NCBI GenBank assembly: GCA_964226865.1
Contig: CAXQUZ010000757.1
Coordinates: forward strand, 2,370-66,369
DNA from: Myxococcota bacterium
GTDB lineage: Bacteria > Myxococcota_A > UBA796 > UBA2385
Direction: 5' to 3'
Length of the DNA stretch: 64,000 bases
Shown here: positions 7,075 through 64,000 of the stretch, one piece after another
How the letters are laid out: each line of letters begins with the position of its first letter
Position numbering within the stretch: the first letter of the stretch is position 1
The notes under the pieces: generated by a model
What the model saw: the letters and a program-made list of their open reading frames with translations, nothing else
The model's database searches: none
Told to the model about the DNA's origin: nothing
Position numbers and translations under genes: made by a program

Positions 7075-8597
7075 GCGGCGACTTTGCGACCGGCCGACAC
7101 AGCGCCGAAGACTACGGCGGCAAGCCCCTGCGCCTCCACGCCGACGTGGCCATCCTCGGCGCGGGCGCCGGCGGCAGCGCGACGGCCCTGGCGCTGGCCG
7201 AGAAGGGCCTCAAGGTCATCCTCCTCGAAGAGGGTCGCCACTGGCGCCCCGACCAGTTCCAGGCCCGCCAGCCCTGGGCCCTGCGCAACCTCTACCAGTC
7301 CCGGGGCTCCCGCGCGCTGCGGGGCAACGCCGTCATGCCGCTGCCGGGCGGCCGGGGGGTCGGCGGCTCGACCCTCATCAACAGCGCCATCAGCTTCCGC
7401 TGCCCCGAGTCGGTGATGGCCCAGTGGCGCGACGACCACGGCTGCCACACCATCCAGAGCGACCGCTTCAACGCCTACTTCGACCGGCTGTGGACGGCCC
7501 TGGGCATCACGGTCAACCCGATGGAGGTCCAGCGCAACAACAACCTCATCTTCAAGGAAGGGGTCGAGAAGCTGGGCCTCAAGGGCGACTTCATGGCCCG
7601 CTCGGCCCCGGGCTGTGTGGGCTGCGGCGTCTGCCAGCTGGGCTGCCCCACGGGGGGCAAGTTCAGCGTTGACCGCACGCTCCTGGTCCACGCGGAGAAC
7701 ATCGGCCAGGTGGGCATCTACGCCGACTGTCGCGTCCGGGGCTGCGAGGTCGAGGGCGACCGCGTCGTCGCCTTCACGGGCACGGTGATGGACCCCGAGA
7801 GCCAGACCCCCCGCCAGGAGGTGCGGGTGACGGCCGACCAGTTCGTCGTCAGCGGCGGGCCCATCGGCAGCCCCCTGTTCCTGCTCGCCAACGGCCTGGC
7901 CGACGACACCCACTGCGGCCGCCACCTCGTCGTCCACCCCACCGTCGGCGCCATGGCCCGCTTCGACCAGGAGATCCGCCCCTGGTCCGGCGTCACCCAG
8001 GGCTACTGGGTCGACTGCTACGACGAGGGCTACCTGCTCCAGACCTACTCGGTCACCCCCGACCAGTACTACTCGCTGCTCCAGACCGCGCCCGGCCGCG
8101 AGACCCTCGAGATCATCCGCGATCTCAAGCACTACGCCTCGGCCGGCGCCCTCGTCCACGACGAAGACAGCGAGGGCCGGGTGGCCCACACCCCGGCCGG
8201 TCCCGACCTGTCCTACTTCATGGGCCCCGGCGACTGCCTGCGGCTCATCGAGGGGCTGCGCCGCACCTGCGAGGTCTTCTTCGCGGCGGGCGCCCGGCGG
8301 GTCCACCCCCTCATCCACGGCCTCGCGGGCATCGACCGCCCCGAAGACATCGAGCGGCTCATCCCGGCCACCCTCCAGCCCCACCACCTCTTCCTCTACG
8401 CCAGCCACCCCATGGGCACCTGCCGCATGGGCGCAGCGCCCGAGACCAGCGTGGTGGATCCGACGGGCAAGGTCTGGGGCTGGGCGAACCTGCGGGTGGC
8501 CGACGCGAGCCTGTTCCCGACGAGCCTCGGCGTGAACCCCCAGGTCACGACCATGGCGATGGGCCTGATGGTCGGCCACGACATCGCGGGCGCCTGA
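7071..8597 (+). CDS. GMC family FAD-dependent oxidoreductase
   Basis: 508 aa from the in-frame ATG at 7071. Rossmann motif DVAILGAGAGGSATALALAEKG. C-terminal GMC signature HPMGTCRMG...VDPTGKVWGWANLRVADASLFPTSLGVNPQ. Confidence 0.9.
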   Translation: MSGDFATGRHSAEDYGGKPLRLHADVAILGAGAGGSATALALAEKGLKVILLEEGRHWRPDQFQARQPWALRNLYQSRGSRALRGNAVMPLPGGRGVGGSTLINSAISFRCPESVMAQWRDDHGCHTIQSDRFNAYFDRLWTALGITVNPMEVQRNNNLIFKEGVEKLGLKGDFMARSAPGCVGCGVCQLGCPTGGKFSVDRTLLVHAENIGQVGIYADCRVRGCEVEGDRVVAFTGTVMDPESQTPRQEVRVTADQFVVSGGPIGSPLFLLANGLADDTHCGRHLVVHPTVGAMARFDQEIRPWSGVTQGYWVDCYDEGYLLQTYSVTPDQYYSLLQTAPGRETLEIIRDLKHYASAGALVHDEDSEGRVAHTPAGPDLSYFMGPGDCLRLIEGLRRTCEVFFAAGARRVHPLIHGLAGIDRPEDIERLIPATLQPHHLFLYASHPMGTCRMGAAPETSVVDPTGKVWGWANLRVADASLFPTSLGVNPQVTTMAMGLMVGHDIAGA

Positions 8598-8646
8598 GGG
8601 CCGCGTCCCAGGCCCCCTTGGGTCCGCCGCCCCCCGGTCCTCGTGC

Positions 8647-10658
8647 TCAGGGCTGCACGGTCGCCCAGAAGTGCGCCACAAGCGCGGGATCCTGGGCCGT
8701 CGCGGCCAGGGCGCGGGCGGGCCGGATGGGGCTGTCGGGGCCGTCGCCCTCGCGCAGCTGGACCGTGTCGAGGCGGTGCTCCGGCAGGGAGAAGCGGCCG
8801 TCCCAGATGGCGAGAACATCGACGCTGTCGTTGTTTACGTTGATGTTGCCAGGCAGGGGGTGGAGCACGAGGGGCGGGGCGAGGGTGTCCCCGGCGACGG
8901 GGAAGAGCCGCAGCCCGTCGCCGGCCACGGCGAGCACCCGGCCGTCGGGGCTGAAGGCCAGGGCGGACCGGCGGGTGGCGGGCGGCAGGGCCGCGGTGGC
9001 GAGCACCCGGTCGTGGTCGAGGTCGACCAGGAGGAGGCGGTCGTCGACGGTGAGCACGGCGGCCCGGTCGCCCCGGGGGGAGAGGGCCCGCCGGGCCGGG
9101 GTGGAGCGCACGCCGGCCGGCAGGGTGGCACGACGGTGGCCGGGCCGCCGGCGCCGCCGCGGTGGAGCTGGTGGGTCGGGCCGCCGGGGACGGGGGCGTC
9201 GGTCGCCCAGAGGGCCTGGTCGCCCCGGGGGCTGGGGGCGGTGCGCCCGCCGAGCAAGGTGTCGGCGCCCGCCACCTCGGCGAAGCCCGTGCCCGGGTCG
9301 GCCCAGAGGGTGCCCTGCCAGGCGAGCCGCCCCGCCCCGCCCCAGGCGAGCTGGTGGCCGCTGCGGGGCCCGGCCACGGTCTCTTGGCGCTGGCCGTCGG
9401 ACGAGACGGCGACGAGGCCCCGGTGGGTGGAGACCAGCAGCCCGCTGCCGTCGGGGGCCAGGGCCACGGCCCGGGCGTCGGCGGGCAGCGCCACCCGGCG
9501 CGCGGGCCAGCCCGCGACCGGCCCCCAGCCCCCGAGCGCAGCGCTGGCGACGGTGGCGAGGTCGGCGGTCGCCGAGAGCTGGTCGGGGGGCCGGTCGCCG
9601 CCGAGGGGCAGCACCGTGGCCTCGCCCTGGTCGAGCTCCCAGCGCAGCAGCCGGCTGCCGGTGGTGAGCAGCCGGCGATCGGGGCCCCAGTCCACGTCGG
9701 TCATGACCTCGGTGGCACCGACCGGGAGCATGCGGGGGGTGGGCCCGTGGAGGCAGATGCCCTGGGGCGAGACCGAGATCCGGGCCCCGTCCCCGCCCGC
9801 CGGCAGGGTGCGCACGGCCGCGCCCTCGGCGGCCTGGGCGGGGCAGGGCGAGGGCAGGGGCGCCAGCGCACCGGGGCGGCCGACCCAGAGGCGGTCGGTG
9901 AGGATGGTCCACTGGTCCCCATCGTGGGCGAGCACCCGTCCGTACTGCTGGCCGCGCAGGGCGCCGGTGAAGTCGGCCTGGGCGCTCGGACGGGTGGCGC
10001 GGGGCCCCCAGGCCCGGGCGCTGCCGTGGCGGCCGTAGGCGAGCAGGGTGTCGCCCTGCCAGTGCAGCCCGGTCACGTCCTCGTCGAGCGCGGTCTCGAG
10101 GCGGCGCCGCACCTCCCCGGTCTCGGCGTCGAGCACGAGGACGGGGTCGCTGCCGATGGTCACGGCCACCGCCCCGCCGTCCGCCCGAAAGGCCGCCGCC
10201 CAGGGGGTGTCGTCGAGGGCCCGGGTCCAGACGGTCTGGCCGTCGCTGTCGACCAGGCGCAGCCCCGGCGCGTCGCTGTCCTCCACCAGGATGCCCCGGG
10301 CGTGCACGTCGAGCACGGGCCCCGAGCGCGCCTGGAGAACATCGGTGGGGCCGCTGCCGTCGAGGGGCCACCGGGCCAGCTCGTCGCGCACCACCCGCAC
10401 CATGCCCCCGCCCTGGAGCGCCCAGGGCTGGAGCGCCGTCTGCTCGGTGCTCTCGTGGCCCACGCCCCGGACCGGCAGCCGGGCGCGCAGGGCGCCGGCC
10501 TCGAGGTCCCAGACCGCCAGGGCGCGGTCGCCGGTCAGCAGCAGGGAGGTGCCGGGAACCAGCACGGGGTCGACCATGCCGAAGCCGGCGTCGAGGCTTG
10601 GCGGCGGCGCGTGGTGGAGGGGGGCGGCGAGGGCGGTCGAGAGCAGGATCATCCACAT
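8647..10658 (-). pseudogene. Secreted beta-propeller (WD40/PQQ-like repeat) protein, apparently frameshifted near 9120-9170 (or a sequencing error)
   Basis: The N-terminal 5/6 lies in the frame of ORF 8835..10712, from ATG 10658 (MWMILLSTALAAPLHHA signal). After ...ALWATDAPVPGGPTHQLH this frame degenerates into P/S/T/C-rich text. The repeat-like sequence (ALSPRGDRAAVLTVDDRLLLVDL...LAFSPDGRVLAVAGDG) continues in the frame of ORF 8647..12075, to the stop at 8647. Confidence 0.5.
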
Positions 10659-10756
10659 GCGCCCGGGAATAGCACGGGGGGCGGGGGCCCTCCGCCGGGG
10701 CCGTCCGGGCACGAGGGGGGGGGCGCCGGGCCGGGCGCAGCCGGTAGACTGGCGGG

Positions 10757-11737
10757 ATGCACACCCCCACGCCGCGCGCCAGCCCGCCCCTCCCCACCGG
10801 TTCCCGGGCGGCCCCTTCCCGCCGCCGTCCGTGCCCCGGCGGGGCCTGCGCCCGGGGGACGGGCCTCGTGCTCGCCCTGGTCCTGGGGCGGCCGGCCCAG
10901 GCCGAAGAGCTCGACGTGGCCCTGGCCCGCGACCTGGGCGACGGCCTCTTCGCCGCCGGCGACGCGGTCGGGGCGCTGCAGTGGTACCGCACGGCCCGCT
11001 GGCTCGAGCCCTCCGCGGCCGAGCTGCCGGGGGTCCAGGTGCGGGTGGGCATGGGCCTCGAGGCCACGGGCGACTTCGCCGCGGCCCAGGACTGGTACCG
11101 CCGGGTCGACCTCGGCGACCCCCAGCTGGCCCGGCTGCGGGCGGGCATCTGCGTCTCCCGGCTCGGGGCCCCGGACCGCGGGAATGCTGAGCTGGTCAGT
11201 CTCTCCGACGACTTCCCCGCGCTGCGGCCCACCGTCGACATGGTGCGCGGTGCGCTCTGGGTCGAGGCGGGCGCGCTCGACGCGGCGGCCCAGGCCTTCG
11301 CCGCCGTGCCGGCCGCCCACCCCCAGGGCCCCACGGCCGCCGGCATCGCCGCCCTCGCCGGCGCGCCGCCCCACCGCAAGAGCCCCGGGGTCGCCGCCGG
11401 CCTCAGCCTGCTGCCCGGCGCGGGCCAGATGTACGTGGGCCAGTGGGGCCGCGGCCTCGGCAGCCTCGCCATGGTGGGGGCCCTCTTCGGAGGGGCCTGG
11501 TGGACGACGAGCCAGGCCACGGCCACGGGGGCCGCGGGCTGGAGCACGGTGGCGGGGGGGCTGGGGGCCGCGGGCCTGGGCACCTGGAGCTGGACGGTGG
11601 TGCGGGCCTGGCGCTCGGCCGAGGGGGCCGCCGCCGAGGCGCGGGCCGCCCATGTCGCCGCGGTCCAGGAGCGTCTCGACACCCTGCTGCCCGAGATTCC
11701 GCTGGCACCCTCGCCCGACCAGCTCCAGGGCCTCTGA
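10757..11737 (+). CDS. TPR-like / membrane-anchored hypothetical protein
   Basis: 326 aa. Signal-like LVLALVLGRPAQA, TPR-like helices (GDAVGALQWYRTARWLEP, GDFAAAQDWYRRV), then LLPGAGQMYVGQWGRGLGSLAMVGALFGGAWW transmembrane segments. The true start is uncertain. Confidence 0.55.
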   Translation: MHTPTPRASPPLPTGSRAAPSRRRPCPGGACARGTGLVLALVLGRPAQAEELDVALARDLGDGLFAAGDAVGALQWYRTARWLEPSAAELPGVQVRVGMGLEATGDFAAAQDWYRRVDLGDPQLARLRAGICVSRLGAPDRGNAELVSLSDDFPALRPTVDMVRGALWVEAGALDAAAQAFAAVPAAHPQGPTAAGIAALAGAPPHRKSPGVAAGLSLLPGAGQMYVGQWGRGLGSLAMVGALFGGAWWTTSQATATGAAGWSTVAGGLGAAGLGTWSWTVVRAWRSAEGAAAEARAAHVAAVQERLDTLLPEIPLAPSPDQLQGL

Positions 11738-31400: not shown

Positions 31401-32025
31401 GGCGCACCACCGTGCCCGGCGCGAGGACCACCGTGCCCGGCCGGACCACCCCGCCCAGGTCGCGGACCGTGCCCGGCTGGCGCACGCTGTCGGGGTCGAT
31501 GCTCAGCCCCCGTCCCGCCGGCGCGGGCGCCGCCACCACCGTGCCACCGGGCCGCAGGGCGCCGCGTCCCCGCAGCCGGCCGATGCTCTCGCGCACGCTG
31601 GCCACCGGGCCCGCCGCCGTGCGGCCCCGGCTGCGGCCCCGCGGCAGCCGCCCCCGCGGACCGGTCCGCCCCCCGCCCGTGCCCCCGATGGTGACCGTGT
31701 CGGGGCTGAGCTTGGCCCGGGCCCAGACCGCGGGGTGGCTGGCCTGGTCGGGGAAGGTCGCCGTGACCACGTCGCCCAGGCCGATCTGGAAGGGCGGCTG
31801 CAGCTGGGCACCGCGCTGGTCGCGGAAGATGACGTCCGTGCGCAGCTGGCCGCGCTCGGTCGCCCCGGGGCCCAGGTTCTGGCGGGTGATGCGGAAGGGC
31901 GCGACGGGCAGACCGAGGGCCGGCCCGGGCACCACCCGCAGGTGGACACCGTCGCGGAGGTGGGCATCGCCCGTCCCGTCGATGGCCTGGGCCACCAGGG
32001 CCCACGGGGGCGCGAGGAGGATCAT
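28450..32025 (-). CDS. Giant-operon gene 3: 1191-aa hypothetical protein (P-G-x-V micro-repeat, FN3-like C-terminus)
   Basis: ORF 28450..32334 trimmed to ATG 32025 (MILLAPPWALVAQ), which overlaps the stop of gene 2 in ATGA. About 10 tandem PGxVxx units. C-terminal LGVRLSWR...YRFAVLR...RWRVVAVDPAGRRS looks FN3-like. Confidence 0.8.
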   Translation of the reverse strand: MILLAPPWALVAQAIDGTGDAHLRDGVHLRVVPGPALGLPVAPFRITRQNLGPGATERGQLRTDVIFRDQRGAQLQPPFQIGLGDVVTATFPDQASHPAVWARAKLSPDTVTIGGTGGGRTGPRGRLPRGRSRGRTAAGPVASVRESIGRLRGRGALRPGGTVVAAPAPAGRGLSIDPDSVRQPGTVRDLGGVVRPGTVVLAPGTVVRPGTVFEPGDLRLPDGGVVLDPGDVRVPGGGTVFDPGDVLVPDGGRTLTFAMRLEGLVYDEHGDEQVVAARSGDPWDVAASQLHALRITGKGTVHGVEWISAREVLRDVKTQLWREMGLPIRSAQRYRGAADASAQAQARVRRGAPARMGRHDQPAAEALSDLDPATENNELARVLMTFGATLPPLQTMLDGPLPPEQAVQEYAGIETGGATDEVASVAAMSVVMAAMIDPGQARWLGFADRDEAPGGDPGDVIAYVIDGVFAVDPAAVGPAAALLQRHLIESDARATLGAWDLPPVSVDGRQHVPVRCVACVTVGAPFDRPPAPTATAVLRPFFATPPGVPADQAEREVELALSARNPTGMMMLARVDGGAVDGLNDRLPQAAPWPPHIPPGGRALALTAERDPAVRQTGQGLLRDRSAPNRPLDYRLAQTDWFGRWSDVATVHADPLPPPPPPAPQLMTEVVPPAVPQPVPDGPLAGSIRVWVPVPPADSLAPGSEALAHLVLDGDHGVHQEVPVNGAQDTLEFTIPGLALPRCGAGQVVLQARWRTVRTTLGPATEKTVALVDPRPPEPVVLPITLAYTQRPDAHGLALLPIDVGVGGAGLRYRVYAADETRLVAMAADAAGSDAGLAAFVAAHSAAGRDLLARAQACRDHGHRFPPTWFRLVSAGPLAAVGGRLRFAHRVSGALRTLTLVKVVAESLQGVAADFGASGVAPFAVPAIGAPPPPLLEVPPAAAPVLPAAADGSPGPAGPAGAWRLRVRAVRGAVAPVRWRLRRSRISALDPDQMPIVATGSVPELPAEGPAEFDIFDTGALPGVPGAGLRPWTRYAWRVEVQAGPAPGTGARHPVTGDRLPETPELLPGAWSPPSGPAAALVMPPGPPPVPVPVAVQPQPLGVRLSWRCALPGGGSMGVYRFAVLRQLPGQPAEQVALLDAEGAGPEGVIDATGLAFWRSPGQPPSGTRWRVVAVDPAGRRSAPSAPLVLP

Positions 32026-35000
32026 GCCAGCTCCTGGGAGATGATGTGGGGGATGGCCCCGATGGACCGGCGCAGGGTGAAGCCGCGGTCCGGAGCGACC
32101 GCGTCGATGGTGAGGACCAGGTCGGCGAGCGCGAGGCCCCCGCCCGGCACGAGAGGCGCGGCCGGCGCCAGCAGCACCCGGGTGCCGGCGACGTTGCTGC
32201 GCAGCACCCGCAGCCGCTCGGCGCCCACGGCCCCGCCGGTGATGTCGAGGCGGGGCACCGTGCCCGCGCCCTCGAGCCGCGGCGGCCGCAGCAGGGCCTC
32301 GTCGCTGTCGAGCAGCACCCCCACGATCGCCCACTGATCGGCCACCAGAGACCAGACCAGCACCGTGCGCGGGGCCCGGGGCAGGGGCAGCGGGTCGAGG
32401 CCCAGCTGGGCGAGGGCCGCGTCGAGGGCCGCGTCGTCGCCGAGGGGCGGGGCCGCCGCGCCGGTGAGGGCCACCGGCAGGGGGGCCGGGGCGATGCGCT
32501 CGACGGGAACACTCGTCCCCACGTCATTGTCGAGACCAAAGCCCAGCGCCTGGAGCAGCCCTTCGGGGCCCCGGTGGCGGCTCGTGCGGAAGTGCTGCAC
32601 GGCGATGATCGTGCCCTCGTCCCCCGGCAGGTTCGGGGAGACCGCCGCGACGATGAGGTCGTAGGCGGCGCCCGGGTCGAGGGTGGCCGAGATGCGCAGG
32701 GTCGTGCTGTGGGGCACAGCGTCGGCGGCGATGCAGGGGTTCTCGCGGATGGCGACGGTCAGCGCCGTCTCGCGGGCCGTGAGCACCGCATCGGGGCTGA
32801 TGCCGGCGGTGACCTGGACGGCCACATCCGGCGGGTGGGCCCGGCCGACGAGGCTGCCGGGGGCCGGGTCGGTGCGCCGGAGCCGCAGCTTCAAGCGCTT
32901 GCCATAGCGGGCCAGCAGCCCCTCGACGTGGAGCACGGAGAAGTGGACCAGCAGGGCATCGTCGAGGAAGTGGCGGAGCAGCGGGCCCGTCGGGTCGAAG
33001 CCCCGGAGGTAGCGGAGCAGGGCCGCGGGATCGAAGGCCTGCTGGGCGTCGTGGCGCAGCCGGTCGTCGATCGACAGCGCCCCGGCGGCCGCCGTGTCGA
33101 AGCGGAAGTCCTGGTGCGTGCCGGAGGCGGTCGACCAGTCGACGCTGTCGACGGGCGGCGGCTGGTCGTTGGCGTCGGCCGCCACCCAGGTGAGCCAGCG
33201 CCAGCGCACCCGCACGGTGTGGGGGGTGTTCGCCGCCATCAGCCAGCGCAGCCCGTCCGGGTCTGGCTGGCGCCCGCCCGGGGCGGCCTCGGCGGCCTCC
33301 TCGAAGACGTCCTCCAGCTCGTCGTGCAGCTCCTGGACCGAGGCGGCGGCGGCATCGGCCCCGGCGCTGATGCCACACAGGGCCAGCAGCGAGACCGTGA
33401 ACAGCGGCCAGCGCAGCACGATCAGCTTGTCGTGGACCGTGACCGTGTCGCCGGCGTCGGGCCGGTACTCGAGGTAGACCCCGAAGCGGCCGCTGTCTTC
33501 GGCGAAGTGGGCGAGGCAGCGGGCCTCGAGCTGGACCCAGCGCCCGGCGGTGGTGTGGGCCATGACCCGGGGGAACCAGCCCGAGGCGGCCAGGGTGGCG
33601 CCGGCGGTCTCGGCGAGGCCGCCGAGGGTGTCCTTGACGGCCACATCGGCGCAGACCTTGTGGATGCGCACGCGGCGGTCGGTGGCGTCGATCGACACCC
33701 ACCGGATGTCGTCTTCTTGGTGTTCGATGATGTGGACGACGTTCTCGTCCTTGTCGAGCTCGAGGCGGCGGGTGTGGAGCACGGCGTCGTGGGCGCCGTG
33801 GATGACCACCTCGACCGCGCGGCTGAAGCTGGGGCGGAGGTCGGTGTGGCTGAGCTCGAGGCGGATGCGCCGGGCGGGCCGGGGCATCTCGATGCGCATG
33901 CCCTTGGAGGTGGGGACCAGCACCGTGCCGCCCGCGGGGGGCAGCCCCGGGCCGAAGAAGATGTGGTCGCCGCGGTCGCGGAAGCGCAGCTCGTCCTCGA
34001 CCAGGGGCGAGACCTGGTTGCTCGTGGGGCTGTGGTCCGAGAAGTCGACGCAGTGCATGCGGTGGCTGGGCACGGCGGGGATCTGGCCGACCACGGCGAG
34101 GGTCAGGCGCAGGTCGCGCAGGGGGCTCACAAGGTTGACGGCGAGGTCGAGGCTGGCCACCAGCGCGCCGTCGGTGTGGAGCTGGGGGAGCTGCCAGCCC
34201 GCGGCGTGGACGTGGGGCAGGTCGGGGGGGGCGCTGTCGCCGACGGGGGCGACCCGGCCGGCCACCAGCCGCATGCCCGCGCTGGCGGCGAGGGCGCGGA
34301 CCTCGGAGATCGGCATGGGCAGCAGCGCCTCGGTGGCCACCGCGTCGATCTGGGAGTGGAGGGAGGAGCTCGGGGGCCCGGAGGCGAAGTGGACCTGGTC
34401 GCCCACGGGCCGGCCCTCGGCGCCGAGGGCACAGGCCGCCTTCGCGACGGGCGGGGTGTCGCAGAGGGTGGCCAGGGTGCCGCCGACCTCGCCGGGGATG
34501 TCGACCACGTCGTCGGCCAAGCCGGCCTGCCAGTGCTGGGGGCGCCAGTGGAAGAGCCCGAGCACGGCCCCCTCGTGGTCGCCCTCGGCCGTCTCGACCG
34601 CGGTGGCGCCCGGCCGGGGGTTCCACCGGGCGAGGTGTTCGCCACCGGCGATGGGCTGGCCCTGGCTGTCGAGCAGCTCGACGCTCTCGAGGCGGAAGAG
34701 GTGGCGCAGCTCGGAGGAGCCGACCCACCGGGCTCGGGGCGCGCCCGAGGGCAGCTGGATGCCGGGGCCGTGGCTGGCGACCACGACGGGGTGGGCGAGG
34801 TGGATCAGGGGGATGGTGTCGGGCCAGACCGTGGGCACGGGCCGGGGGGCCGCCACCCCCTGCTCGCTGGCCTCGGCCACGCTGCGGCCCCAGCCGTCGA
34901 GCAGGGCCAGCCGGTCGACCAGCGGATCGGGCGGCAGCACCGGGGGCTCGGGCTCTTCGCCGCCCCAGGTGAGGCCCACACAGGCGCTGACCGAGAAGAA

Positions 35001-38000
35001 GAAGAAGCTGACCCGGCCACAGAAGCGGGCCCGCAGGAACACATCCTCGTCGGTGATGATGGCCTGGATGGTGCCCGAGAGGCCGATGCTCACGATGAGC
35101 AGCCGCAGGGAGCCGGCCACGTGGATGGTGCCGGCGAGGGTGAAGGGACGGGTGCCGACGCCGGCGAGCACGGTGGCGCTGACGCCGAAGCCGAGGGCGG
35201 CGTTGCCCCAGTCGAGCTTGAAGCCCGCGCCGAAGCCCAGGGCGAAGCCGTTGAGGTCCATGCGGGCGGCGGCCCGGGGACGGTGGGGCCCGCCGAGGTC
35301 GTGCAGCTTGCGCTCTTCGACCATGAAGAAGGCCCAGCCGTCCACATCGAGCACCCCGGGCAGCAGGGTGAGCGAGACGGGGCTGTCGGGCCGGCCGTCA
35401 CCGCCGTCCGCGCCCACCCGCAGGTGGGCATCCCGGGGCACGCCGGGCATCGGGAAGTAGGCCGAGAAGGGCACGTCGACCCGCAGCAGGTTGGGCACCT
35501 CGAAGAGGCCCCGCACGGCGACCAGCACGTGCTCCGGGGTCACCTCGACCAGGCCCGTCAGCGCCCCGGAGGGCCCCGCCGTCTCGGTCACCGCCGCGGT
35601 GGGCTTCTGGAGCATCTTGGCGTCGATGCTGAGCAGCACGGCGGGCTGGGGGAAGGCCACGACCAGCATGCCGAGGGCGTGGAAGGTGAAGCCGCCGTCG
35701 GGGAGGGTGCCGACGACAACACCCAACCCGAGGGCATTCTGGTCGGCTTCGTAGCCGTACTTCTGGCCCACGGGGCGCTGGTGCCAGGCCAGCAGCCGCG
35801 CCGCCGGATCGCCCGGCCCGTCCTGGCCCGTGCGCACCCCGTTGCTCACGAAGCGGCCCTGGACCCCCGACAGCCCGAGGCCCGAGCTCGCCAGGGGGAT
35901 GGCCGAGCCGAAGACCACGCCGGCCTCGACATGGGTCATGCCCTGCTTCATCGAGAGGGCGGCGTTGGCGCGCACGTCGATGGGCAGGATCTCGAGGTCG
36001 ATGGCGGCGCTGAGCTCCTGGGCCCCGAGGGCGAGCTGGCCCGTGCCCCGGACCACCCCGGGCAGGTCGACCCGGGCGGCGAGACCGCGCACGGCCACGT
36101 CCACGTCGACCTGGTCGCCCCGGCGGGCGAGGGTGATGCGCACCGTGGCCTCGGTGACCTCGACCACGCCGAGGTCGAGGGTGAACTCGAGGTCGAGCTC
36201 GAACCAGACCGAGCCGGCGCCCATGCGCACGGCCGTCACGCCGAGCAGCCGGCCGAGGGCGTTGTCGAGCACCCACTGGCCCGGGTCTTCGATGGCGAAG
36301 TCGGCCTCGTCGTAGGAGAGCGACAGCTTCTCGAGGCCGGTCTGGGCGTCGTCCCAGGTGAGGCCGACGTTGCGGTAGCGCACCCGCACGGGCTTGTCGG
36401 TGCGCAGCCCGAGGGGGTTGTCGGCCTTGACGTGGAGGGCCACGCCGTAGTCGCAGCGGATGCGGCTGCGGAAGCCCTCGACCACGTCCAGATCGGGCTG
36501 GCGGTGTTCGATCTCGACCCGCTGGAGCACCACCTCGGCCTTGTCGGAGATGGCCGCGCCGATGGTGCCGGCGGCCGTCAGCGCGGCGATGCGCACGGCC
36601 GTGCTGTCGGGGGCGGCCGCCGAGATGCCGCCGAGCAGGGCCGGCCCGAAGGCCAGGGCCGTGCCGAGCACCACCCCGGCGGTGTCGGTGGCCGTGAACT
36701 TCGCGAGGCCGTCGGGGTCGCCCGGCCGGTCGACGGCGACGCTGAACAGGGTCTGGCCCGAGCGGGGGTCGTGGCTGAAGCGGCCGACGACCTGCCAGAC
36801 ATCGGGCACCCCGGGGGGGCTCTGGGGCACGACCGTGCCCGTGGCGCCCGGCACCGCGACGGGGGTGGCCTGCCAGGCGACCCGCAGCTCGCAGAAGGTG
36901 GGGGCCCAGTCGGCGGGCGCCACCACCCGGGGGCTGTCCCAGCGGACCTCGAGGGTCACGCGCCAGGGCAGGTCCGGGTCGCGGGGGGCCACGGGGGCCG
37001 CAGCCGGCGCGTCGGCCCCCGGGACGAGCACCCGCCGGCGGGTGGTGCGCGGCGGGGTCGGATCGGGCCGGGGGGTCGGCGGGGTCTGGGGCGGCACGAG
37101 GGCGTAGATGTCGGCGCTGCGGTGCTCCCAGCGGGCGGCGATGTCCTGGATCTTCTTGCCGTCGCGGACCCAGCGCGACAGGGCGCTGTAGCGGCCGAGG
37201 ATGGCCTGGTCGTCGACATCGAAGGCGGCGCCCTCGGTCCACGGGGCCCCGGCGGGCAGGGCGGCGCCGGCGGCCGCCTTGGCCGTGCCCTGGCGCCAGG
37301 TGGTCGTGGGCTCGTCCTCGCCCCGCCAGCGCAGCCGGTCGGCGGCGATGGCCCCGGCGCCCAGGGCCGGATCCAGCAGCAGCCGGGCGGTCTGGTGGGC
37401 CCGGTCGCGGCCGAGGCGGGTGTTGTGGGCGCGGCTGCCGATGTCGCAGGTGCGGCCGATGACGAGGAAGCGGGTGCCGGCGGGCAGGGCGCCGGCCCAG
37501 GCGCGCAGGGCCCGGGCGTGGGCGGCGATGTCGGTGCTGGCCTGGAAGGCCGCCGCGCCCGTCGCCGGGTCGGTGTAGGGGGCCGCCTCGGCGATGGGCC
37601 AGGGCTCGGCCGGGCCGAAGACCGTGCCGCCCGTGGCGGTGGCCTGGAGGATGGCCCGGCGGCCGCGCAGGTGGACCGCGTCGTACTGGTAGTGGACCCG
37701 CTGGTGCTGGACCCAGGTCACGGCCGGCGGGGTGGGCGCATCGGGGGCTGCGGGGGCGCCGAGGGCCACGGCCACCTCGGCCAAGACATCGACGGGAACG
37801 TTGACCGCATCGTTGTTCACGGTGGCCTTGGACCGGCCCGGGGCGCGACCGCCCGTGGCGTGCCAGCCCCCCAGCGCGAGGCTGTCGAGCACGGCCTCGA
37901 CCCCGACGGGGTTGCCGCTCGCGTCGGTCACACCGCCGGCCCCGCCGAGCAGCAGGGCGCCGGTGGCCAGCACCCGCAGCTCGACCCGGCGCCGGAGGCC

Positions 38001-57768: not shown

Positions 57769-59451
57769 TCAGCGGGCCCAGGCGTGGGCGCCCGCCGGCA
57801 CGTCCCGGTGCTCCTGGGTGCTGCCGTCGGGCCAGGTGAGGGTCACCCGGTCGGCGGCGGCCGCCCCCATCAGCGGCGCCTCGACGACCAGCTCGCCCGA
57901 CGAGCCGATGCCCCCCGGCAGCATCCAGCCCGTCCACCGGTGGGGCCCGACGGCCACCTCGACCCGGGTGCCGATGCCGTGGGGGTTGCCCGGGCCGGCG
58001 TCGAGGGCCAGCCGCAGCCCCGTCTCGCAGCCCCCCTCGACCCCCCAGAGCCGGGCCGTCGGGCCGCCGGCGAGGAACAGCTCGCTGCGCCCGTCGCCGT
58101 CCACGTCGATGCGCACGAGGGCGCGGTGGTTCTCGGGGCTGTCGAAGCCCAGCGCGGCGCCCACATCCGAGAAGCCCGCGGGCCCGGCGAGCAGCAGGGC
58201 GTCGTGCTGGTCGTCGGACCAGGTGAAGCCCTCGCCGAGCAGCCCGATGCTCTCGCGCTGGACCTCGGCGATGTGGCCGAAGGCCGTGAGGATGTCGCTG
58301 CGGCCGTCCCGGTCGAGGTCGTGCACGAGGGCGCCCCACGAGACCAGCCGCTCGGGGTCGGCCCCGAGGTCGGCGCCGAGGGCCCGGGCCGTCTCGTAGA
58401 AGCTGCCGTCGGGCAGGCTCGCCAGCAGCTTGGGGCCGCCGATGTCGGTGATCCAGAGGTCGGGCAGCCCGTCGCCGGTGGCGTCGCCCACGGCCGCCGC
58501 CATGCCGTACATCGAGAGGTCGCAGGCGCAGTCCTCGTCGACGCTGAAGACGCCGTGGCCGTCGTTCTCGAGCAAGAGGTTCGGCACGATGAAGGGGCCG
58601 AAGTCGTTGGCCAGGTAGAGGTCGAGGTCGCCGTCCCCGTCGGCATCGAGCACGGCGGCCTCTTGGGTGTGGGCCGGGTGGACGGCGGCGGGCAGCCGGT
58701 CGCTGGCGTCGGTGAAGACGCCCGGGGCCGCCTGGAGGTAGAGGCTCGAGGGGTCGCCCGGCGGGGCCAGGCTGGTGATCTCTTCGAGGGAGACATCGGC
58801 CTCGAAGCGCCGGGCCACGAAGAGGTCGAGGCGGCCGTCGCCGTCGAGATCGGCGAAGCTGCCCGTGCCCGTGAAGCCGTCGCTGGCGGGCAGGGCCGTG
58901 GCCGTGAAGCCGAAGGCGCCGTCGTTCCAGAGCAGCAGGTCGGGGCTGCCGCTCGGGGTGCCGAGGAAGAGGTCGAGGTCGCCGTCCTCGTCGAGATCTG
59001 CCGCCGCGACGGCCTGGGCCGGGGGCGCCGGGCTGCCGTCGACGAGCAGCGGCCCGGGGCTGAGCACCCCGTCGGCGTTGCGAAGGCTGCGCGCCCCCCT
59101 GCGGCTGGCCAGCACGATGTCGGCCTGGCCGTCGCCGTCGAAGTCGCCGACCGCCGCCCCCCAGCCGCCCACCAGGGGCTCGTGGCCGACCGGCCAGTGC
59201 TGCCGCAGGTGCAGCGTCGGGGCCGGGCAGACCACCGGCGCGGGGCTGGCCGTGTCGTCGCCGTCCCCGCCGCCGCCCGTGCCCTCGCCCCCGTCCGTGC
59301 CCCCGGCGCCGCTCCCGGCCCCGTCCGCCCCGCTTCCCCCGGCGCTGTCGGTGGTCCCGGCGGCCGGCTTGCGGGCCTCCCCCGTGCAGCCCCCCGCCGC
59401 CGCCCAGAGCAGCAGCCCCGCCGCGGTCCGGCCCCGCCGTCCGCGGCTCAT
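57769..59451 (-). CDS. FG-GAP/VCBS repeat + ASPIC/UnbV lipoprotein (CRTAC1-like), second copy
   Basis: ORF 57769..60771 trimmed to ATG 59451 (MSRGRRGRTAAGLLLWAAAGGC lipobox). G/D/T-rich linker, repeated GDFDGDGQADI / DLDGDGRLDL motifs. C-terminal GIGTRVEVAVGPHRWTGWMLPGGIGSSGELV. Confidence 0.85.
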   Translation of the reverse strand: MSRGRRGRTAAGLLLWAAAGGCTGEARKPAAGTTDSAGGSGADGAGSGAGGTDGGEGTGGGGDGDDTASPAPVVCPAPTLHLRQHWPVGHEPLVGGWGAAVGDFDGDGQADIVLASRRGARSLRNADGVLSPGPLLVDGSPAPPAQAVAAADLDEDGDLDLFLGTPSGSPDLLLWNDGAFGFTATALPASDGFTGTGSFADLDGDGRLDLFVARRFEADVSLEEITSLAPPGDPSSLYLQAAPGVFTDASDRLPAAVHPAHTQEAAVLDADGDGDLDLYLANDFGPFIVPNLLLENDGHGVFSVDEDCACDLSMYGMAAAVGDATGDGLPDLWITDIGGPKLLASLPDGSFYETARALGADLGADPERLVSWGALVHDLDRDGRSDILTAFGHIAEVQRESIGLLGEGFTWSDDQHDALLLAGPAGFSDVGAALGFDSPENHRALVRIDVDGDGRSELFLAGGPTARLWGVEGGCETGLRLALDAGPGNPHGIGTRVEVAVGPHRWTGWMLPGGIGSSGELVVEAPLMGAAAADRVTLTWPDGSTQEHRDVPAGAHAWAR

Positions 59452-59497: not shown

Positions 59498-60898
59498 TCA
59501 TGGCACCAGCTCCTCGGCGTCCAGTTGGGCATGGATCTGGTCGGCGATCCAGTGGTTCCCGTCGGCGCTGAGGCGGAGGTGCTGGGCGCTGTGGAAGAGG
59601 CGCCGCCGGTCGGGGTGGGCGAGGATGCCGCCCTGGAGGTCGACCAGGGGCAGGTCGCGCCCGGCGGCGATGCGCGCGAGGGCCGCCTGCTGGGCGGGCA
59701 GGGTCGAGAGGTTCTCGAGCACGACCCGGGCGCCCCGGGCCTCGGCGGCGGCGGCGATGCGCGCGATGTGGAGCGCGAGCAGGGTCTCCATCGTGTCGCG
59801 GGCGGCGTCGGCATCGGCCACCGAGCCGGCCCGGAGCCCGTGGGCCACGTCGGCGTCCTGGACCAGGGCGGCCCGGGCGCCCAGGGCATCGGCCGGGTCG
59901 AGGGTCTCGCCCGCCGTCCAGCGCAGGAAGGCGAGCAGGCTCCAGGCCTCGGCCGTGTCGGGATCCCGGGCCAGCGCCCCCTCGAGCAGCCCCGCGGCGC
60001 GCGCGAGCTCGGCCGGTCCGCCCCGCACGATGGCCACCCGGGCCTCGTCGATGGCCTCCCGCAGCACCATGTCGGTGTCGGCGCGGGCGGTCTCGCGGCG
60101 CTTCTGGGCGCTGCGGCGGGCGAGGGCCTGGGCAAAGTCGGGCCACCGCTGGCGCACCAAGGCGAGGGTCTCGGCGGCGCCGGCGAAGTCGCCCGTGCCC
60201 ACGAGGAGCCCGAACAGCCGCATGTGCTGGGCCGGTCGGGGGTCGGGCGAGAGGGCGAGGTGGGTATGCCAGGCGGCGAGGGCCGGGCCGAGCTCGTCCC
60301 GCTCGATGAGGGCCGTGGCCAGGGCGGCCCAAGCGGCCGGGTCGTCGGGCCGCTGCTCGGTGGCGCGGACCCGGGCCGACAGGGTGCCCTCCGCCGCCGG
60401 GGCGGGCGTGCCGCCGGGCGCCGGGGGGTGGAGCACGAGGCCCACCAGCCGGGGCAGCACGAGGGCATCCCAGGGCCGGGGCGCCGGGGGGGCCTGGGCG
60501 GCCGCGAGGGCCTCGGCCGAGCCGTCGAGGCGCCGGTTGATGTTGACCACCACCACATCGGGCTGGTGGGCATCGAGCAGGGCCTCGATGTTGGCCGAGA
60601 AGTGGTCGATGTTCTTGCCGCGCACGCCCCCGTTGACCACCCGGGCGTCGAGGCCGGGATGGTGGTCGCGCAGGGCATCCTCGAGCAGGGCCGGGTAGCT
60701 CTGGTCGGCGGGCAGGCCGAGGCCGAGGGTGTAGCAGGCGCCGAGGCAGAGCACGGTGAAGTCCCCGCCACCCGGGCCCCGGCGCTGGGCGTCGAGCAGC
60801 CCGAGGCCGAGGCCGAGCCCCTGGAGGGCCAGCTCGAGCAGCGCCACCCCGGCGAGCCCGCCCCCGATCACCCGCAGCAGCCGCCCCGCGCTCAGCAT
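59498..60898 (-). CDS. Membrane-anchored SGNH-like protein with TPR-like insertion (DltD/AlgX-position partner of the MBOAT)
   Basis: 466 aa. N-terminal anchor LRVIGGGLAGVALLELAL. Block I-like FTVLCLGACYTLG, then VVNGGVRG. Helical repeat insert (AWAALATALIERDELGPALAAW..., AEAWSLLAFLRW...). C-terminal SADGNHWIADQI (DxxH-like). Confidence 0.6.
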   Translation of the reverse strand: MLSAGRLLRVIGGGLAGVALLELALQGLGLGLGLLDAQRRGPGGGDFTVLCLGACYTLGLGLPADQSYPALLEDALRDHHPGLDARVVNGGVRGKNIDHFSANIEALLDAHQPDVVVVNINRRLDGSAEALAAAQAPPAPRPWDALVLPRLVGLVLHPPAPGGTPAPAAEGTLSARVRATEQRPDDPAAWAALATALIERDELGPALAAWHTHLALSPDPRPAQHMRLFGLLVGTGDFAGAAETLALVRQRWPDFAQALARRSAQKRRETARADTDMVLREAIDEARVAIVRGGPAELARAAGLLEGALARDPDTAEAWSLLAFLRWTAGETLDPADALGARAALVQDADVAHGLRAGSVADADAARDTMETLLALHIARIAAAAEARGARVVLENLSTLPAQQAALARIAAGRDLPLVDLQGGILAHPDRRRLFHSAQHLRLSADGNHWIADQIHAQLDAEELVP

Positions 60899-60928: not shown

Positions 60929-61087
60929 TCAGAACAAGGCATAGATGAACTCGGTGCGGTCTTGGCTCCACAGCAGCAGCAACAGCCCCAGACCGCCGAT
61001 GAGCACGACAGAGAGGGGCAGCTGCCACCACGCGGCATCGTCGGCGATGGCACGGCGGACACGGTCGAGCGGGCGGGGCGGCGACAT
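60929..61087 (-). CDS. Unlisted 52-aa single-pass membrane ORF with DltX-like C-terminal FIYxxF motif
   Basis: My own translation of the minus strand: MSPPRPLDRVRRAIADDAAWWQLPLSVVLIGGLGLLLLLWSQDRTEFIYALF-stop. The ATG lies 9 nt after the MBOAT stop, and the stop lies 30 nt before the SGNH-like start. Too short for the ORF track. Confidence 0.55.
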   Translation of the reverse strand: MSPPRPLDRVRRAIADDAAWWQLPLSVVLIGGLGLLLLLWSQDRTEFIYALF

Positions 61088-61096
61088 GCCCAGGGG

Positions 61097-62296
61097 CTAC
61101 CACGCTCCCAGCACGTGTCCCACCAGCGCGGCCAGCTTCGTGGGCCCGGTCATGAACACCACCACGCCGGCGCAGAAGTAGGTGACCGTGACGAAGACGG
61201 CGACGGGCGCCGGCACCCGCTGGAGCGCCCGGTGGAGGCCCCGGTGGCGGCGGCGGGCCTGCTGGACCCGCTGGACGAGCAGCACGCCGGCGGCGTGGTA
61301 GACGCCGAGGAACAGGAAGGCCGGCGACAGGCGGTGCCAGATCTGGACCAGGAAGACCGTGACGAAGACCCCGAGCACGAGGCGGCCCGGGCTGGCCTTG
61401 ACCCCGAAGAAGGGCAGCAGCACGTAGTCGCGGAAGAAAGTGTAGAGGGTGATGTGCCAGCGGCGCCAGAGGGTGGCGAGGTCGCGGGCGAGCAGGGGCC
61501 AGTCGAAGTTCTCCGGCACGGTGAGCCCAAAGAGGGCCCCGAGGCCGATGGCCACGTCGGAGTAGCCCGAGAAGTCGAGGTAGAGCTGGATGCCGGCGCC
61601 GTAGGCCGCGGCGAGGGCCTCCCAGCGGGCGTGGTCGCGGGGGGCCAGCAGCACGGGGCCCGCCCAGCGGCCGAGGGTGTCGGCCAGCACCAGCTTCTTC
61701 ACGAGCCCCACCCCGATGCGCACCAGGGCGAGGTTGAGCACCCCGAGGCCCGGGGCCGGCGCCTCGCGGAGCTGGCGCTGGAAGGGGCCGAAGCGCATGA
61801 GGGGGCCGGCCAGCAGCAGGGGCGGGAAGAAGAGCCACGCGAGAACATCGCGCGCTGGGGCATCTTCGATGGTTCCGCGGGCCCGCTCGACCCAGAGGTG
61901 GACGAGGCGGAAGGTGAGGAAGCTGAGGCCCAGGGGCACGAGGACGGCGTCGGCGCCGGGCAGGGGGTTGTGGGCCGGGGCGACGGCCAGGGCCCCGCCG
62001 GGGGGCGCCAGCACCTCGTAGAGCTTCCAGCCGACGAGGTGGGCCACGAGCAGCCCGAGCACCGCCGCCCGCTGCCACCGGGCCGGCCCCGCCCCCGCGC
62101 GCCCGAGGCGGGCCGACCAGGCGACCCCGCCGGCGGCCAGGCCGAGGTGGAGCAGGGACCAGCCGCCCGCCTGGATCCCGAGCAGCAGGGCGCCGGCCGC
62201 CGCAAGCAGCCAGGCCCGGGCGGGAGGGGCGAGGCCACGGGCCACCAGCGCCAGCAGGGCCAGGGCGCCGAGCAGGGCGGGGTGGGTCAGGGGCAC
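61097..62296 (-). CDS. MBOAT family O-acyltransferase (DltB/AlgI-like)
   Basis: 399 aa. LGLSFLTFRLVH, YLDFSGYSDVAIGLG, and LWRRWHITLYTFFRDYV with the conserved catalytic His. The GTG start overlaps the halogenase stop by 10 nt. Confidence 0.9.
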   Translation of the reverse strand: MPLTHPALLGALALLALVARGLAPPARAWLLAAAGALLLGIQAGGWSLLHLGLAAGGVAWSARLGRAGAGPARWQRAAVLGLLVAHLVGWKLYEVLAPPGGALAVAPAHNPLPGADAVLVPLGLSFLTFRLVHLWVERARGTIEDAPARDVLAWLFFPPLLLAGPLMRFGPFQRQLREAPAPGLGVLNLALVRIGVGLVKKLVLADTLGRWAGPVLLAPRDHARWEALAAAYGAGIQLYLDFSGYSDVAIGLGALFGLTVPENFDWPLLARDLATLWRRWHITLYTFFRDYVLLPFFGVKASPGRLVLGVFVTVFLVQIWHRLSPAFLFLGVYHAAGVLLVQRVQQARRRHRGLHRALQRVPAPVAVFVTVTYFCAGVVVFMTGPTKLAALVGHVLGAW

Positions 62297-63669
62297 GCGG
62301 GACCGAAGGCGTGGCTGCTGAGGCTGCCGAGGGCCCGGTGGAGGGGGTGGTCGGGGTTGGCCTCGACCGCCCGCACCATGGCCTCCATCTCGTCGAGCAC
62401 GGGGGGCGGCGGCCCGTAGACATCGCCCTGGAGCAGGGCCAGCACGTCGAGGCGGTGGGCGGGCTGGGAGAGGAACCAGGTGAAGAGCACGTTGAGCCGG
62501 TAGTAGAGGCTGATGAAGCGGTGCCAGGTGGCCGTGCCCCGGCGCATCATGGCGGCGTAGTCGGCGAAGTCGGCGGCCACGGGCGGACGCCCCTGGGCCC
62601 GGGAGGCGCGCACGGCCCGGGCGGCGGCGCTGGCCCCGGTGAGCGCGATGCTCACGCCGCTGGAGAAGATGGGATCGACGAAGCGGGCGGCGTCGCCCAC
62701 CAGCAGGAAGTCGTCGCCGTGGAGGGCGCGCATGGCGTAGCTGTAGTCGGCCTCGAGGCGCAGGGGCCGCACCCGCTCGGCCGCCGCCACCCGGGCCGCC
62801 AGCGCCGGCGTCGTCGCGAGACAGGCCGCGAAGAAGTCCGCCGCGCTGCCGCCGTGGGCCCGCCGGTCGCGCCGCTGGGCGACCACCCCGATGCTCGTGT
62901 GGTCGTCGTCGATGGGGATCTGCCAGATCCAGGCGTCGCGGAAGGGCAGGAAGTGGACCCAGATGTGGTCGGCCCGGTCGGTGCCCCGGTCGAAGCCCCG
63001 GAACCAGCTGTGGACGGCGAGCTGGTCGAAGACCGGGTCGTGCACCCGCAGGCCGAGCTGGCGCCCGAGCACCGTGGCCCGGCCGCTGCAGTCGAGCACG
63101 ATGTGGGCCCGCAGGGTGGCGGGGCCGCCGGGGCCCTGGAGGCGGAGGCGGGCCGGGCCGTGGGCGCCGCCGAGCTCGACCCCGGCCACCGCCGTCTCCT
63201 CGCGCACCTCGGCCCCGACCGACCGGGCGTGGTCGAGCAGGATCTTGTCGAAGCGGGCCCGGTCGACGTGGAAGGTGTGGGGGCGGTCGACGCCGGGCTG
63301 GGGCCGCTCGGCGAAGCGCAGGCTCGCGGTGGTGGCGGGCAGGGAGCCCGATGCAGACCCGGGCACGGCGAGGCCCTGCCAGTCGTGGGCGTGGAGGCGC
63401 GGGCTGCCGTGGGCCTGCCAGACGGCGCCGTACTTGCGGGGAAAGCCCGCCGCCTCGATGGTCTCGAGCAGCCCCAGCTCGGCGAGCACCCGGTTGGCCG
63501 CCGGCACCAGCGACTCGCCGACGTGGGGCCGAGGGAAGCGGGCGCGCTCGAGCACGACACAGCGCAGCCCGTCCGGAGCGAGCAGCCCCGCTGCCGCCGC
63601 GCCGGCCGGACCGCCGCCGATGATGGCGACATCGTAGGGACGCGGGTCACGGGCAGCAGGGGCGGGCAT
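62287..63669 (-). CDS. Flavin-dependent halogenase-like FAD enzyme (CndH/PltA-type motifs)
   Basis: ORF 62287..63804 trimmed to ATG 63669. DVAIIGGGPAGAAAAG (GxGxxG), HVGESLVP, FPRKYGAVW (conserved Lys position), AWIWQIPI (WxWxIP) and LVGDAARFVDPIFSSGV. Confidence 0.78.
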   Translation of the reverse strand: MPAPAARDPRPYDVAIIGGGPAGAAAAGLLAPDGLRCVVLERARFPRPHVGESLVPAANRVLAELGLLETIEAAGFPRKYGAVWQAHGSPRLHAHDWQGLAVPGSASGSLPATTASLRFAERPQPGVDRPHTFHVDRARFDKILLDHARSVGAEVREETAVAGVELGGAHGPARLRLQGPGGPATLRAHIVLDCSGRATVLGRQLGLRVHDPVFDQLAVHSWFRGFDRGTDRADHIWVHFLPFRDAWIWQIPIDDDHTSIGVVAQRRDRRAHGGSAADFFAACLATTPALAARVAAAERVRPLRLEADYSYAMRALHGDDFLLVGDAARFVDPIFSSGVSIALTGASAAARAVRASRAQGRPPVAADFADYAAMMRRGTATWHRFISLYYRLNVLFTWFLSQPAHRLDVLALLQGDVYGPPPPVLDEMEAMVRAVEANPDHPLHRALGSLSSHAFGPACP

Positions 63670-63728: not shown

Positions 63729-64000
63729 TTAGCCCGGTGGGCGCGCGGCCCCAGGGCGGCGCAGCTTGCCCCGCGCGGTCCGGGGCAGGGCCTCCACGAA
63801 GCACAGCTCATCGGGCAGCAGCGCGGCCGGCAGGCGCTGGCGCAGGGCCCGCCAGGCCGCCCGCAGGTCGGCCGGGGCGCCCGGATCCGCCTCGAGGGCG
63901 GCCACCAGGGCCCTGCCCGTCCAGTCGACCCGGGCCGCCGCCACCCCGGGCAGGGCCGCGCAGGCCGCCTCGACCTCCTCGGGCTGGATGCGGAAGCCCC
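63729..64000 (-). CDS. C-terminal fragment of an adenylate-forming enzyme (AMP-dependent synthetase/ligase); 5' part lies outside the window
   Basis: The frame is open to the window edge: GFRIQPEEVEAACAALPGVAAARV...FVEALPRTARGKLRR (A8 to A10 motifs of ANL adenylation domains). The tracked ORF 63729..63944 is only its tail. Confidence 0.72.
   Translation of the reverse strand, partial: GFRIQPEEVEAACAALPGVAAARVDWTGRALVAALEADPGAPADLRAAWRALRQRLPAALLPDELCFVEALPRTARGKLRRPGAARPPG

Follow-up and report, generated by a model that had tools for sequence, protein, structure and literature searches.

The microprotein DltX is reportedly one of the proteins that carry acyl groups on a tyrosine, a shuttle said to have been established for it in 2023. 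For PatA, such an acyl-tyrosine shuttle was established in 2025, in work that defined the FXYXXF motif and described shuttling by both DltX and PatA (PMC12148441). The DltX protein of Bacillus thuringiensis carries this motif at its C-terminus, which reads STFIYNEF (PMC5541007), and in the PatA/PatB systems of peptidoglycan O-acetylation and those of the AlgI type, where the hexapeptide is fused to a membrane-bound O-acyltransferase (MBOAT), a His-catalyzed transfer to the Tyr and then to an SGNH partner has been proposed (PMC12148441). According to the same work, carrier proteins and DltX-like microproteins are both missing from MBOAT pathways other than Dlt (PMC12148441). We describe here a locus in a 64,000-nucleotide (nt) stretch of DNA, hereafter the window, from a Myxococcota bacterium (GenBank assembly GCA_964226865.1, contig CAXQUZ010000757.1, positions 2,370 to 66,369 of the forward strand), in which an open reading frame (ORF) of 52 codons lies between an MBOAT gene and a gene for an SGNH-like protein. 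We consider it likely that the product, an inner-membrane microprotein, supplies the acyl-shuttle hexapeptide FIYALF in trans, so that an acyl group would pass from a carrier protein through the MBOAT to Tyr49 of the microprotein and on to Cys55 of the SGNH-like partner. Set against the published statement on non-Dlt MBOAT pathways, the locus would be a counter-example, and one from a different sequence family.

The ORF occupies positions 60929..61087 of the window on the minus strand and runs from an ATG start through 52 codons to a TGA stop (60929..60931); its product is MSPPRPLDRVRRAIADDAAWWQLPLSVVLIGGLGLLLLLWSQDRTEFIYALF. The N-terminus is Arg-rich, with 4 Arg ahead of the hydrophobic stretch, and the N-termini of orthologues are Lys/Arg-rich, more strongly so. 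A conserved AWWQxPL segment, seen in the alignment, precedes the lone predicted transmembrane helix, which covers approximately residues 23-40 (codons at 60968..61021, minus strand) and stands out as the one hydrophobic segment in the Kyte-Doolittle profile (maximum 2.75 over residues 25-39). By the positive-inside rule, the protein is predicted to be oriented with its N-terminus inside and its C-terminus outside. The terminal hexapeptide, F47-I-Y49-A-L-F52, conforms to FxYxxF and is encoded at 60932..60949 (minus strand), with the TAT codon of Tyr49 at 60941..60943. Only 9 nt separate the ORF from the stop codon of the MBOAT gene (61097..62296, minus strand), and 30 nt from the gene for the SGNH-like protein (59498..60898, minus strand). 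An initial annotation of this DNA had proposed the same ORF, with an identical translation, as a single-pass membrane peptide between these two genes with a DltX-like C-terminus, and all of this is borne out by the gene map, by the single hydrophobic stretch in the 52 amino acids (aa) and by the FIYALF-stop at the extreme end, to be compared with STFIYNEF. Its expectation that automated annotation would overlook the ORF proved mistaken: the exact protein is already on record, albeit unnamed, in NCBI, in ENA (including a TARA sample) and in Logan contigs.

The window has a G+C content of 76%, and DNA of this composition yields many long spurious ORFs, which speaks for a chance ORF; the position of this one, in the frame of the MBOAT gene and 3 sense codons past its stop, would likewise fit the remnant of an MBOAT C-terminus that had been broken through a nonsense mutation or misassembly. 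We regard either origin as extremely improbable. In the codon positions of the ORF, the G+C fractions are 0.68/0.47/0.85, the same pattern as in the flanking genes (~0.8/0.5/0.96). Among 586 stop-bounded segments of at least 30 aa from all six frames of the window, the microprotein ORF alone ends in F.Y..[FY], a terminus for which the residue frequencies of the window itself give a chance expectation of ~8e-5 per window. The recorded copies of the exact protein come from independent contigs in several samples and always lie between the same two genes.

Against both stands the conservation of the protein and of its end. A word-indexed protein search with the 52-aa query retrieved only the query itself, and the relatives were gathered by an exhaustive HMMER search, a profile search and two collection scans, which together produced about 30 microproteins of 36-75% identity. 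Nearly all of these end in TEFIY[AS]LF-stop, with MDFIYSLF-stop in two loci and a single exception, the singleton P0152, which ends in DAIYPLF. In an alignment of nine sequences reaching down to 36% identity, the invariant residues are W20, Q22, L29, L35, E46, F47, I48, Y49, L51 and F52. Between the window and the orthologous loci L008 and L009, the last 8 codons show 3-4 synonymous and no non-synonymous differences, whereas the transmembrane part varies freely. The restriction of change in the motif codons to synonymous positions, together with the conserved termini, indicates that the frame, the position of the stop and the motif are under selection at the protein level. Loss of the frame or the motif in orthologous loci, which the initial annotation had named as the outcome that would count against it, was looked for, and both were found to be kept. 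The 52-residue ORF encodes a real, conserved membrane microprotein.

The partner MBOAT is a short protein of the DltB type (399 aa). It matches Pfam MBOAT at 2.9e-20; the best NCBIfam family is LTA_dltB (TIGR04091), at 154 bits and under the equivalog cut-off; and the sole sequence relatives in the PDB are the DltB structures 6BUG and 8JEM (E 2e-28). An AlphaFold2 model built from an alignment of 16 orthologues reached a predicted local distance difference test score (pLDDT) of 80.5, and its top Foldseek match was DltB over the full length. W280 and H281, in a WHITL context, are invariant across the 16 orthologues, and His281 is predicted to be the catalytic residue of the MBOAT.

This MBOAT has no fused FxYxxF tail, and none of the 22 listed MBOATs of its orthologue clade (P0002-P0004 and P0007-P0025; 344-459 aa) has the acyl-shuttle motif at its terminus. 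Among the next 100 homologues, which are longer (~460-590 aa), about 84 end in F.Y..[FY], for example EFIYFGF, PFIYLQY or PFVYGQF. In a concatenate of the window MBOAT and the microprotein, the latter aligns collinearly with the C-terminal end of these long MBOATs, namely their final peripheral helix on the cytoplasmic side, their final transmembrane helix and the motif; the transmembrane helix that precedes those elements in the long proteins has no counterpart in the concatenate. There would be one FxYxxF per system, as in Dlt, PatAB and Alg; here, the MBOAT has none, and the motif is found on the neighboring microprotein, which differs from PatA/PatB and the AlgI-type systems in carrying the motif on a separate polypeptide without the linking transmembrane helix, and in the predicted donor, a carrier protein as opposed to acyl-CoA.

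The relative frame of the two genes was compared at seven sites where they are adjacent (the window, 61087-61099; L007, 9216-9225; L008, 9216-9222; L009, 9381-9390; L029; L030; and L031). In six of the seven, the microprotein ORF is in the frame of the MBOAT gene and lies 2-3 sense codons past its stop; in L031, it is out of frame. The shared frame may have been left by gene fission or may just be inherited spacing. Production of an MBOAT-microprotein fusion by stop-codon readthrough was considered and rejected as the principal explanation, given that L031 is out of frame and that the linking transmembrane helix is missing. The same observations bear on the notion of a broken MBOAT: the helix that joins core and tail in the fused MBOATs is wholly absent, so a simple nonsense break would not produce the present arrangement, and the split is kept in orthologues down to 42-54% MBOAT identity, in reshuffled gene order as well, and out of frame in L031. 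The conservation data effectively refute both a chance ORF and such a remnant.

How far, then, does the likeness to DltX extend? Both proteins have about 50 aa, a basic N-terminus, one transmembrane helix and a short, here predicted, external tail ending in FxYxxF (DltX is PF12459/DUF3687). Both are partnered with a short DltB-type MBOAT that has no motif of its own, and both systems would draw on a carrier-protein thioester supplied by a stand-alone adenylating enzyme and include a membrane-anchored SGNH-type protein as the third partner. There are differences as well. The microprotein gene lies between the MBOAT gene (or an adenylation gene) and the SGNH gene, whereas the DltX gene comes first in its operon; it comes from uncultured marine bacteria of high G+C content, with one NCBI record labeled Deltaproteobacteria, in contrast to the Firmicutes in which DltX is found; the SGNH partner is a Cys/TPR variant, unlike DltD; and the dlt operon encodes the D-alanine ligase DltA with DltB, DltC and DltD, whereas here, beside the DltB-like MBOAT, there are an adenylation enzyme with a PltF-type proline pocket, a PltA-type halogenase and, in orthologous loci, a probable prolyl-carrier dehydrogenase, with a (halo)pyrrole-2-carboxyl group as the predicted cargo instead of D-alanine. 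The proposal of a DltX-like protein in the initial annotation therefore holds for the motif, the size, the topology, the DltB-like MBOAT without a motif and the carrier and adenylating genes in orthologous loci, but not for membership in the DltX family by sequence. On balance, the comparison supports a microprotein that would work like DltX without belonging to its family.

The family to which the microprotein can be assigned is a different one. A family-to-family comparison with hhalign matched it to DUF5989 (PF19451) over the whole length with a probability of 97.8% (E 9e-13). At 21.1 bits, the window copy falls short of the Pfam gathering score of 27, but eight of nine relatives match DUF5989, at best with an E value of 1e-7, and most orthologues are already labeled PF19451. 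Judging by these profiles, the microprotein is a divergent branch of this SxtK-like family, with which it shares a WW-x-x-P-L/I segment before the transmembrane helix and the terminal FIYxLF-stop. Canonical DUF5989 proteins (P0155-P0166) all end in APFIY[SAT]LF-stop, with AP instead of TE before the motif, and they differ in genomic context as well, being encoded after a carbamoyltransferase gene and an SxtJ-family gene (L012, 561-3004; L013, 3-1285) rather than beside MBOAT and SGNH-TPR genes. The same order and sizes have been reported for sxtI-sxtJ-sxtK in saxitoxin clusters, in which "unknown" is the entry given for both SxtJ and SxtK (PMC2679770). The term "DUF5989" occurred in no paper in a full-text literature search.

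Membership in this family raises the alternative that the microprotein is a genuine DUF5989/SxtK-type protein that carries no acyl group and serves as a structural or assembly subunit, for example one that tethers or stabilizes either the MBOAT or the SGNH-TPR protein, with the FIY terminus as a docking peptide. The strong match to a family usually found beside a carbamoyltransferase and SxtJ, and not next to an MBOAT, is in keeping with such a role, as is the listing of SxtJ and SxtK as proteins of unknown function (PMC2679770); moreover, the tightest gene linkage of the microprotein is to the SGNH-TPR gene and not to the MBOAT gene. We nevertheless judge a purely structural subunit unlikely. 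The residues that never vary coincide exactly with the positions of FxYxxF that have a demonstrated catalytic role in DltX and PatA, the partner MBOAT has no copy of the motif of its own, in contrast to ~84% of its more distant homologues, and a structural role leaves unexplained why every member has a Tyr three residues before the C-terminus.

The SGNH-like protein (466 aa) has a membrane anchor at its N-terminus, the SGNH blocks I-III and an extended TPR insertion, with weak Pfam matches to Lipase_GDSL_2, NonGDSL and TPR, and is proposed here as the second acyl acceptor. The seven orthologues share a block I that reads LGACYTxGxG. When the protein is aligned by phmmer with the SGNH esterase 7C2A (E 1.6e-7), G-A-C falls on G-D-S, which places Cys55 (codon at 60734..60736, minus strand) at the position of the nucleophile, the catalytic Ser. 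Cys55, N89, G91 and N121 are invariant in the orthologues. There is no invariant His: a DxxH occurs in the window copy alone, and Arg takes the place of its His in five of six orthologues. If our reading is right, the partner, with Cys in place of Ser, would represent a new catalytic variant of SGNH proteins. The possibility that Cys55 is the lipobox Cys of a lipoprotein (LGAC) was rejected, as it lies 55 residues into the protein, has charged residues just upstream and belongs to a block I that aligns at an E value of 1e-7. A single-sequence AlphaFold2 model of this protein (pLDDT 49) was too poor to use.

Wherever the SGNH-TPR gene is present, in nine distinct loci (the window, L007, L008, L009, L010, L018, L019, L031 and L033), the microprotein gene lies directly upstream of it, even where the gene order is reshuffled. 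Three layouts can be distinguished. In the most complete one (L007), genes for a carrier protein, an acyl-CoA-dehydrogenase-like protein, an adenylation enzyme, a halogenase, the MBOAT, the microprotein, the SGNH-TPR protein and an FG-GAP/ASPIC repeat protein follow one another; the order in the window is the same as far as the window reaches, its end falling inside the adenylation gene. A shorter form of this layout (L008, L009, L031 and L033) comprises the MBOAT, microprotein and SGNH-TPR genes, followed by the FG-GAP gene except in L009. In the third layout (L010, L018 and L019), the order is MBOAT, carrier protein, dehydrogenase, adenylation enzyme, microprotein and SGNH-TPR, and the halogenase gene is absent. 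The locus L020 has the order of this third layout as well, broken by an integrase/insertion sequence-like ORF and the end of the contig (11877-12708) where the microprotein and SGNH genes would be expected. In the third layout, the genes of the donor cassette are interspersed among those for the MBOAT, the microprotein and the SGNH protein, which argues that all of these act in one pathway.

Upstream of the MBOAT gene, and overlapping its start by 10 nt, lies a gene for a PltA-type FADH2-dependent halogenase (62287..63669, minus strand) with a Pfam Trp_halogenase match, which is related over its full length to PltA (5DBJ, E 7.5e-122), to ChlB4 (3e-121) and to 5BUK (3.5e-116), and in which a WIWQIP motif can be read. 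Beyond it, at 63729..64000 (minus strand), the window contains only the 3' end of a gene for a stand-alone PltF-like amino-acid adenylation enzyme. A contig from the same species (L002) carries this enzyme with its AMP-binding and AMP-binding_C domains; it attains the cut-off of the amino-acid-adenylation model, and the two best PDB matches of its pocket region are L-proline--[L-prolyl-carrier protein] ligases (7THN and 6O6E). By our own positional reading from printed alignments, anchored on the FDxS, xxAGE and GPTE motifs, the nine variable positions of the specificity code would be DLLYLALVC in this enzyme and in PltF (6O6E) alike.

The genes for the carrier protein and the dehydrogenase are found in L007, L010, L018, L019 and L020. 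In an orthologous locus that is 71% identical, a PigA/RedW-like prolyl-carrier dehydrogenase is encoded along with a carrier protein, and we infer that in the genome studied here these two genes lie past the end of the window. The L007 dehydrogenase scores 277 bits with PigA and 264 bits with RedW, below the equivalog cut-offs of 500 and 650, with the next family at 162 bits, and the 85-aa PP-binding carrier protein has a weak likeness to DltC among other families. Taken together, L007 (3798-6666) and the window (62287-63669 and 63729-64000) make up a complete PltF/PltL/PltE/PltA-like cassette that is operon-linked to an MBOAT gene and not to a polyketide synthase (PKS) or ligase gene.

In the biosynthesis of pyoluteorin and prodigiosin, this set of enzymes turns proline into pyrrolyl-2-carboxyl-S-carrier, PltA chlorinates the pyrrolyl-S-carrier, and a PKS or ligase in the cytoplasm receives the pyrrolyl unit. 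The cassettes of those pathways (PltF/PltL/PltE/PltA, PigI/PigG/PigA and RedM/RedO/RedW) follow the same four-enzyme logic as the genes described here and are their close relatives in sequence; the difference is that here no PKS or condensation enzyme is adjacent and that the cassette is operon-linked to, and interleaved with, the MBOAT, microprotein and SGNH-like genes. From these genes, we predict that a carrier-protein thioester serves as the acyl donor, as it does in Dlt, and that the cargo is not D-alanine but probably a chlorinated pyrrole-carboxylate. "MBOAT" and "pyrrolyl" occurred together in no paper in a full-text literature search.

A small ORF next to tailoring-type enzymes, such as a halogenase and an acyltransferase, and set off by spacers of only 9 and 30 nt, also calls to mind a ribosomal precursor peptide that would be modified by the halogenase and MBOAT, or a leader or regulatory mini-ORF that would couple the expression of the MBOAT and SGNH genes. 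Three observations make this very unlikely in our view: the halogenase is of the PltA type, a class that acts on pyrrolyl-S-carrier, and is absent from three loci that retain the microprotein (L010, L018 and L019); a transmembrane helix with an invariant C-terminus and a variable N-terminus is the reverse of the typical layout of leader and core; and selection acts on the protein sequence, not merely on translation.

We infer the following series of chemical steps for the proposed shuttle. L-proline would be adenylated and loaded onto the small carrier protein, and the PigA/RedW-like dehydrogenase would oxidize the prolyl-carrier to pyrrolyl-2-carboxyl-S-carrier, which, in loci of the type seen in the window, the PltA-like halogenase would then halogenate. 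The DltB-like MBOAT, by means of His281, would take the acyl group from the carrier thioester and pass it through the membrane onto Tyr49 of the microprotein. The acyl ester of Tyr49 would swing to the membrane-anchored SGNH-like/TPR protein and acylate Cys55, and the SGNH-like/TPR enzyme would hand the acyl group to an acceptor outside the cytoplasm.

Several results weigh against this proposal. The hidden Markov model (HMM) of the microprotein family matches the fused MBOAT tails weakly, at best with 14.8 bits, and the match vanishes once the last 8 residues are removed, so that the homology to these tails rests on the collinear alignment and is not shown statistically. Pfam DltX (PF12459) is not matched by the window protein at E <= 1, and by only two of nine family members, the best at E 0.056; comparison of the microprotein with B. 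thuringiensis DltX by hhalign gave a probability of 2.8%, although the alignment is collinear from end to end. A profile search of the PDB with the microprotein family likewise returned chance transmembrane matches alone (E ~1-2) and no DltX chain. The SGNH-TPR partner is without the Ser-His-Asp triad of DltD and PatB. As regards gene content, the donor carrier cassette is not adjacent in four loci (L008, L009, L031 and L033), the orthologous MBOATs in L016 and L017 have neither a microprotein gene nor an SGNH gene as a neighbor, and L030 has the MBOAT and microprotein genes with no SGNH-TPR gene within 8 kb. Finally, DUF5989 is normally found beside carbamoyltransferase and SxtJ, not MBOAT, so the terminal FIY could serve another role.

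With the shuttle remaining the reading that we favor, the mechanism of DltX would extend beyond teichoic-acid alanylation, and Pfam DUF5989 would gain a functional hypothesis. The termini of the canonical DUF5989 proteins suggest that they, too, might be tyrosine-based carbamoyl or acyl shuttles. A bolder version would have these bacteria run a hitherto undescribed transmembrane pathway, with the chlorinated pyrrole-2-carboxyl group built on a carrier protein in the cytoplasm, exported as a Tyr ester on the DUF5989-type microprotein and attached by the Cys-type SGNH/TPR enzyme to a molecule outside the cytoplasm, and would make the whole DUF5989/SxtK family an independent second lineage of shuttles that carry acyl (or carbamoyl) groups on tyrosine. 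It draws on the fact that all members seen end in FIYxLF-stop and are usually encoded beside a carbamoyltransferase and SxtJ; we advance it tentatively, with distinctly less than even confidence. If true, it would provide a testable role for the SxtJ/SxtK pair of the saxitoxin clusters. Delivery of a halogenated pyrrole-carboxylate outside the cytoplasm, which our reading implies, would be unexpected; to our knowledge, halopyrrole-carboxylate chemistry has to date been described only for the assembly of natural products within the cytoplasm.

Our reading would also mean that the combination of a short MBOAT with a separate microprotein recurs outside the Firmicutes, and two more variants of it were seen in metagenome genomes of Armatimonadetes and Alphaproteobacteria. 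In the Armatimonadetes genome (L021, 4882-9318), genes for an AMP-binding enzyme and an unknown 365-aa protein precede that of a short, 391-aa MBOAT, and a mini-ORF that overlaps the 3' end of the latter ends in VPFVYARF-stop, which makes this another split system. In Hyphomicrobiaceae and other Alphaproteobacteria, mini-ORFs with one transmembrane helix lie just upstream of short MBOAT genes and end in LFRYQQF-stop (L025, 7531-7812; L026, 7505-7666; L027, 7432-7671); these have no match to Pfam DltX or DUF5989.

Downstream of the SGNH-TPR gene, the window encodes an FG-GAP/ASPIC repeat protein of 560 aa (57769..59451, minus strand; Pfam). Conserved in L007, L008, L031 and L033, its gene is the only other conserved neighbor, and the protein could be an acceptor or an accessory factor of the pathway. 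Its N-terminus, MSRGRRGRTAAGLLLWAAAGGC (…LWAAAGGC), looks by eye like a possible lipoprotein signal.

The remaining observations are minor. In L030, the region downstream of the microprotein gene (8200-11000) is repeat-rich, has no coding-type signal in the G+C content of third codon positions (GC3) and is apparently non-coding. RNA scans of the window detected no tRNAs and no Rfam families. An ORF of 2484 aa at 32022-39476 (minus strand), which has no Pfam match at E <= 1e-5, is strongly coding-like, with a GC3 of 0.97.

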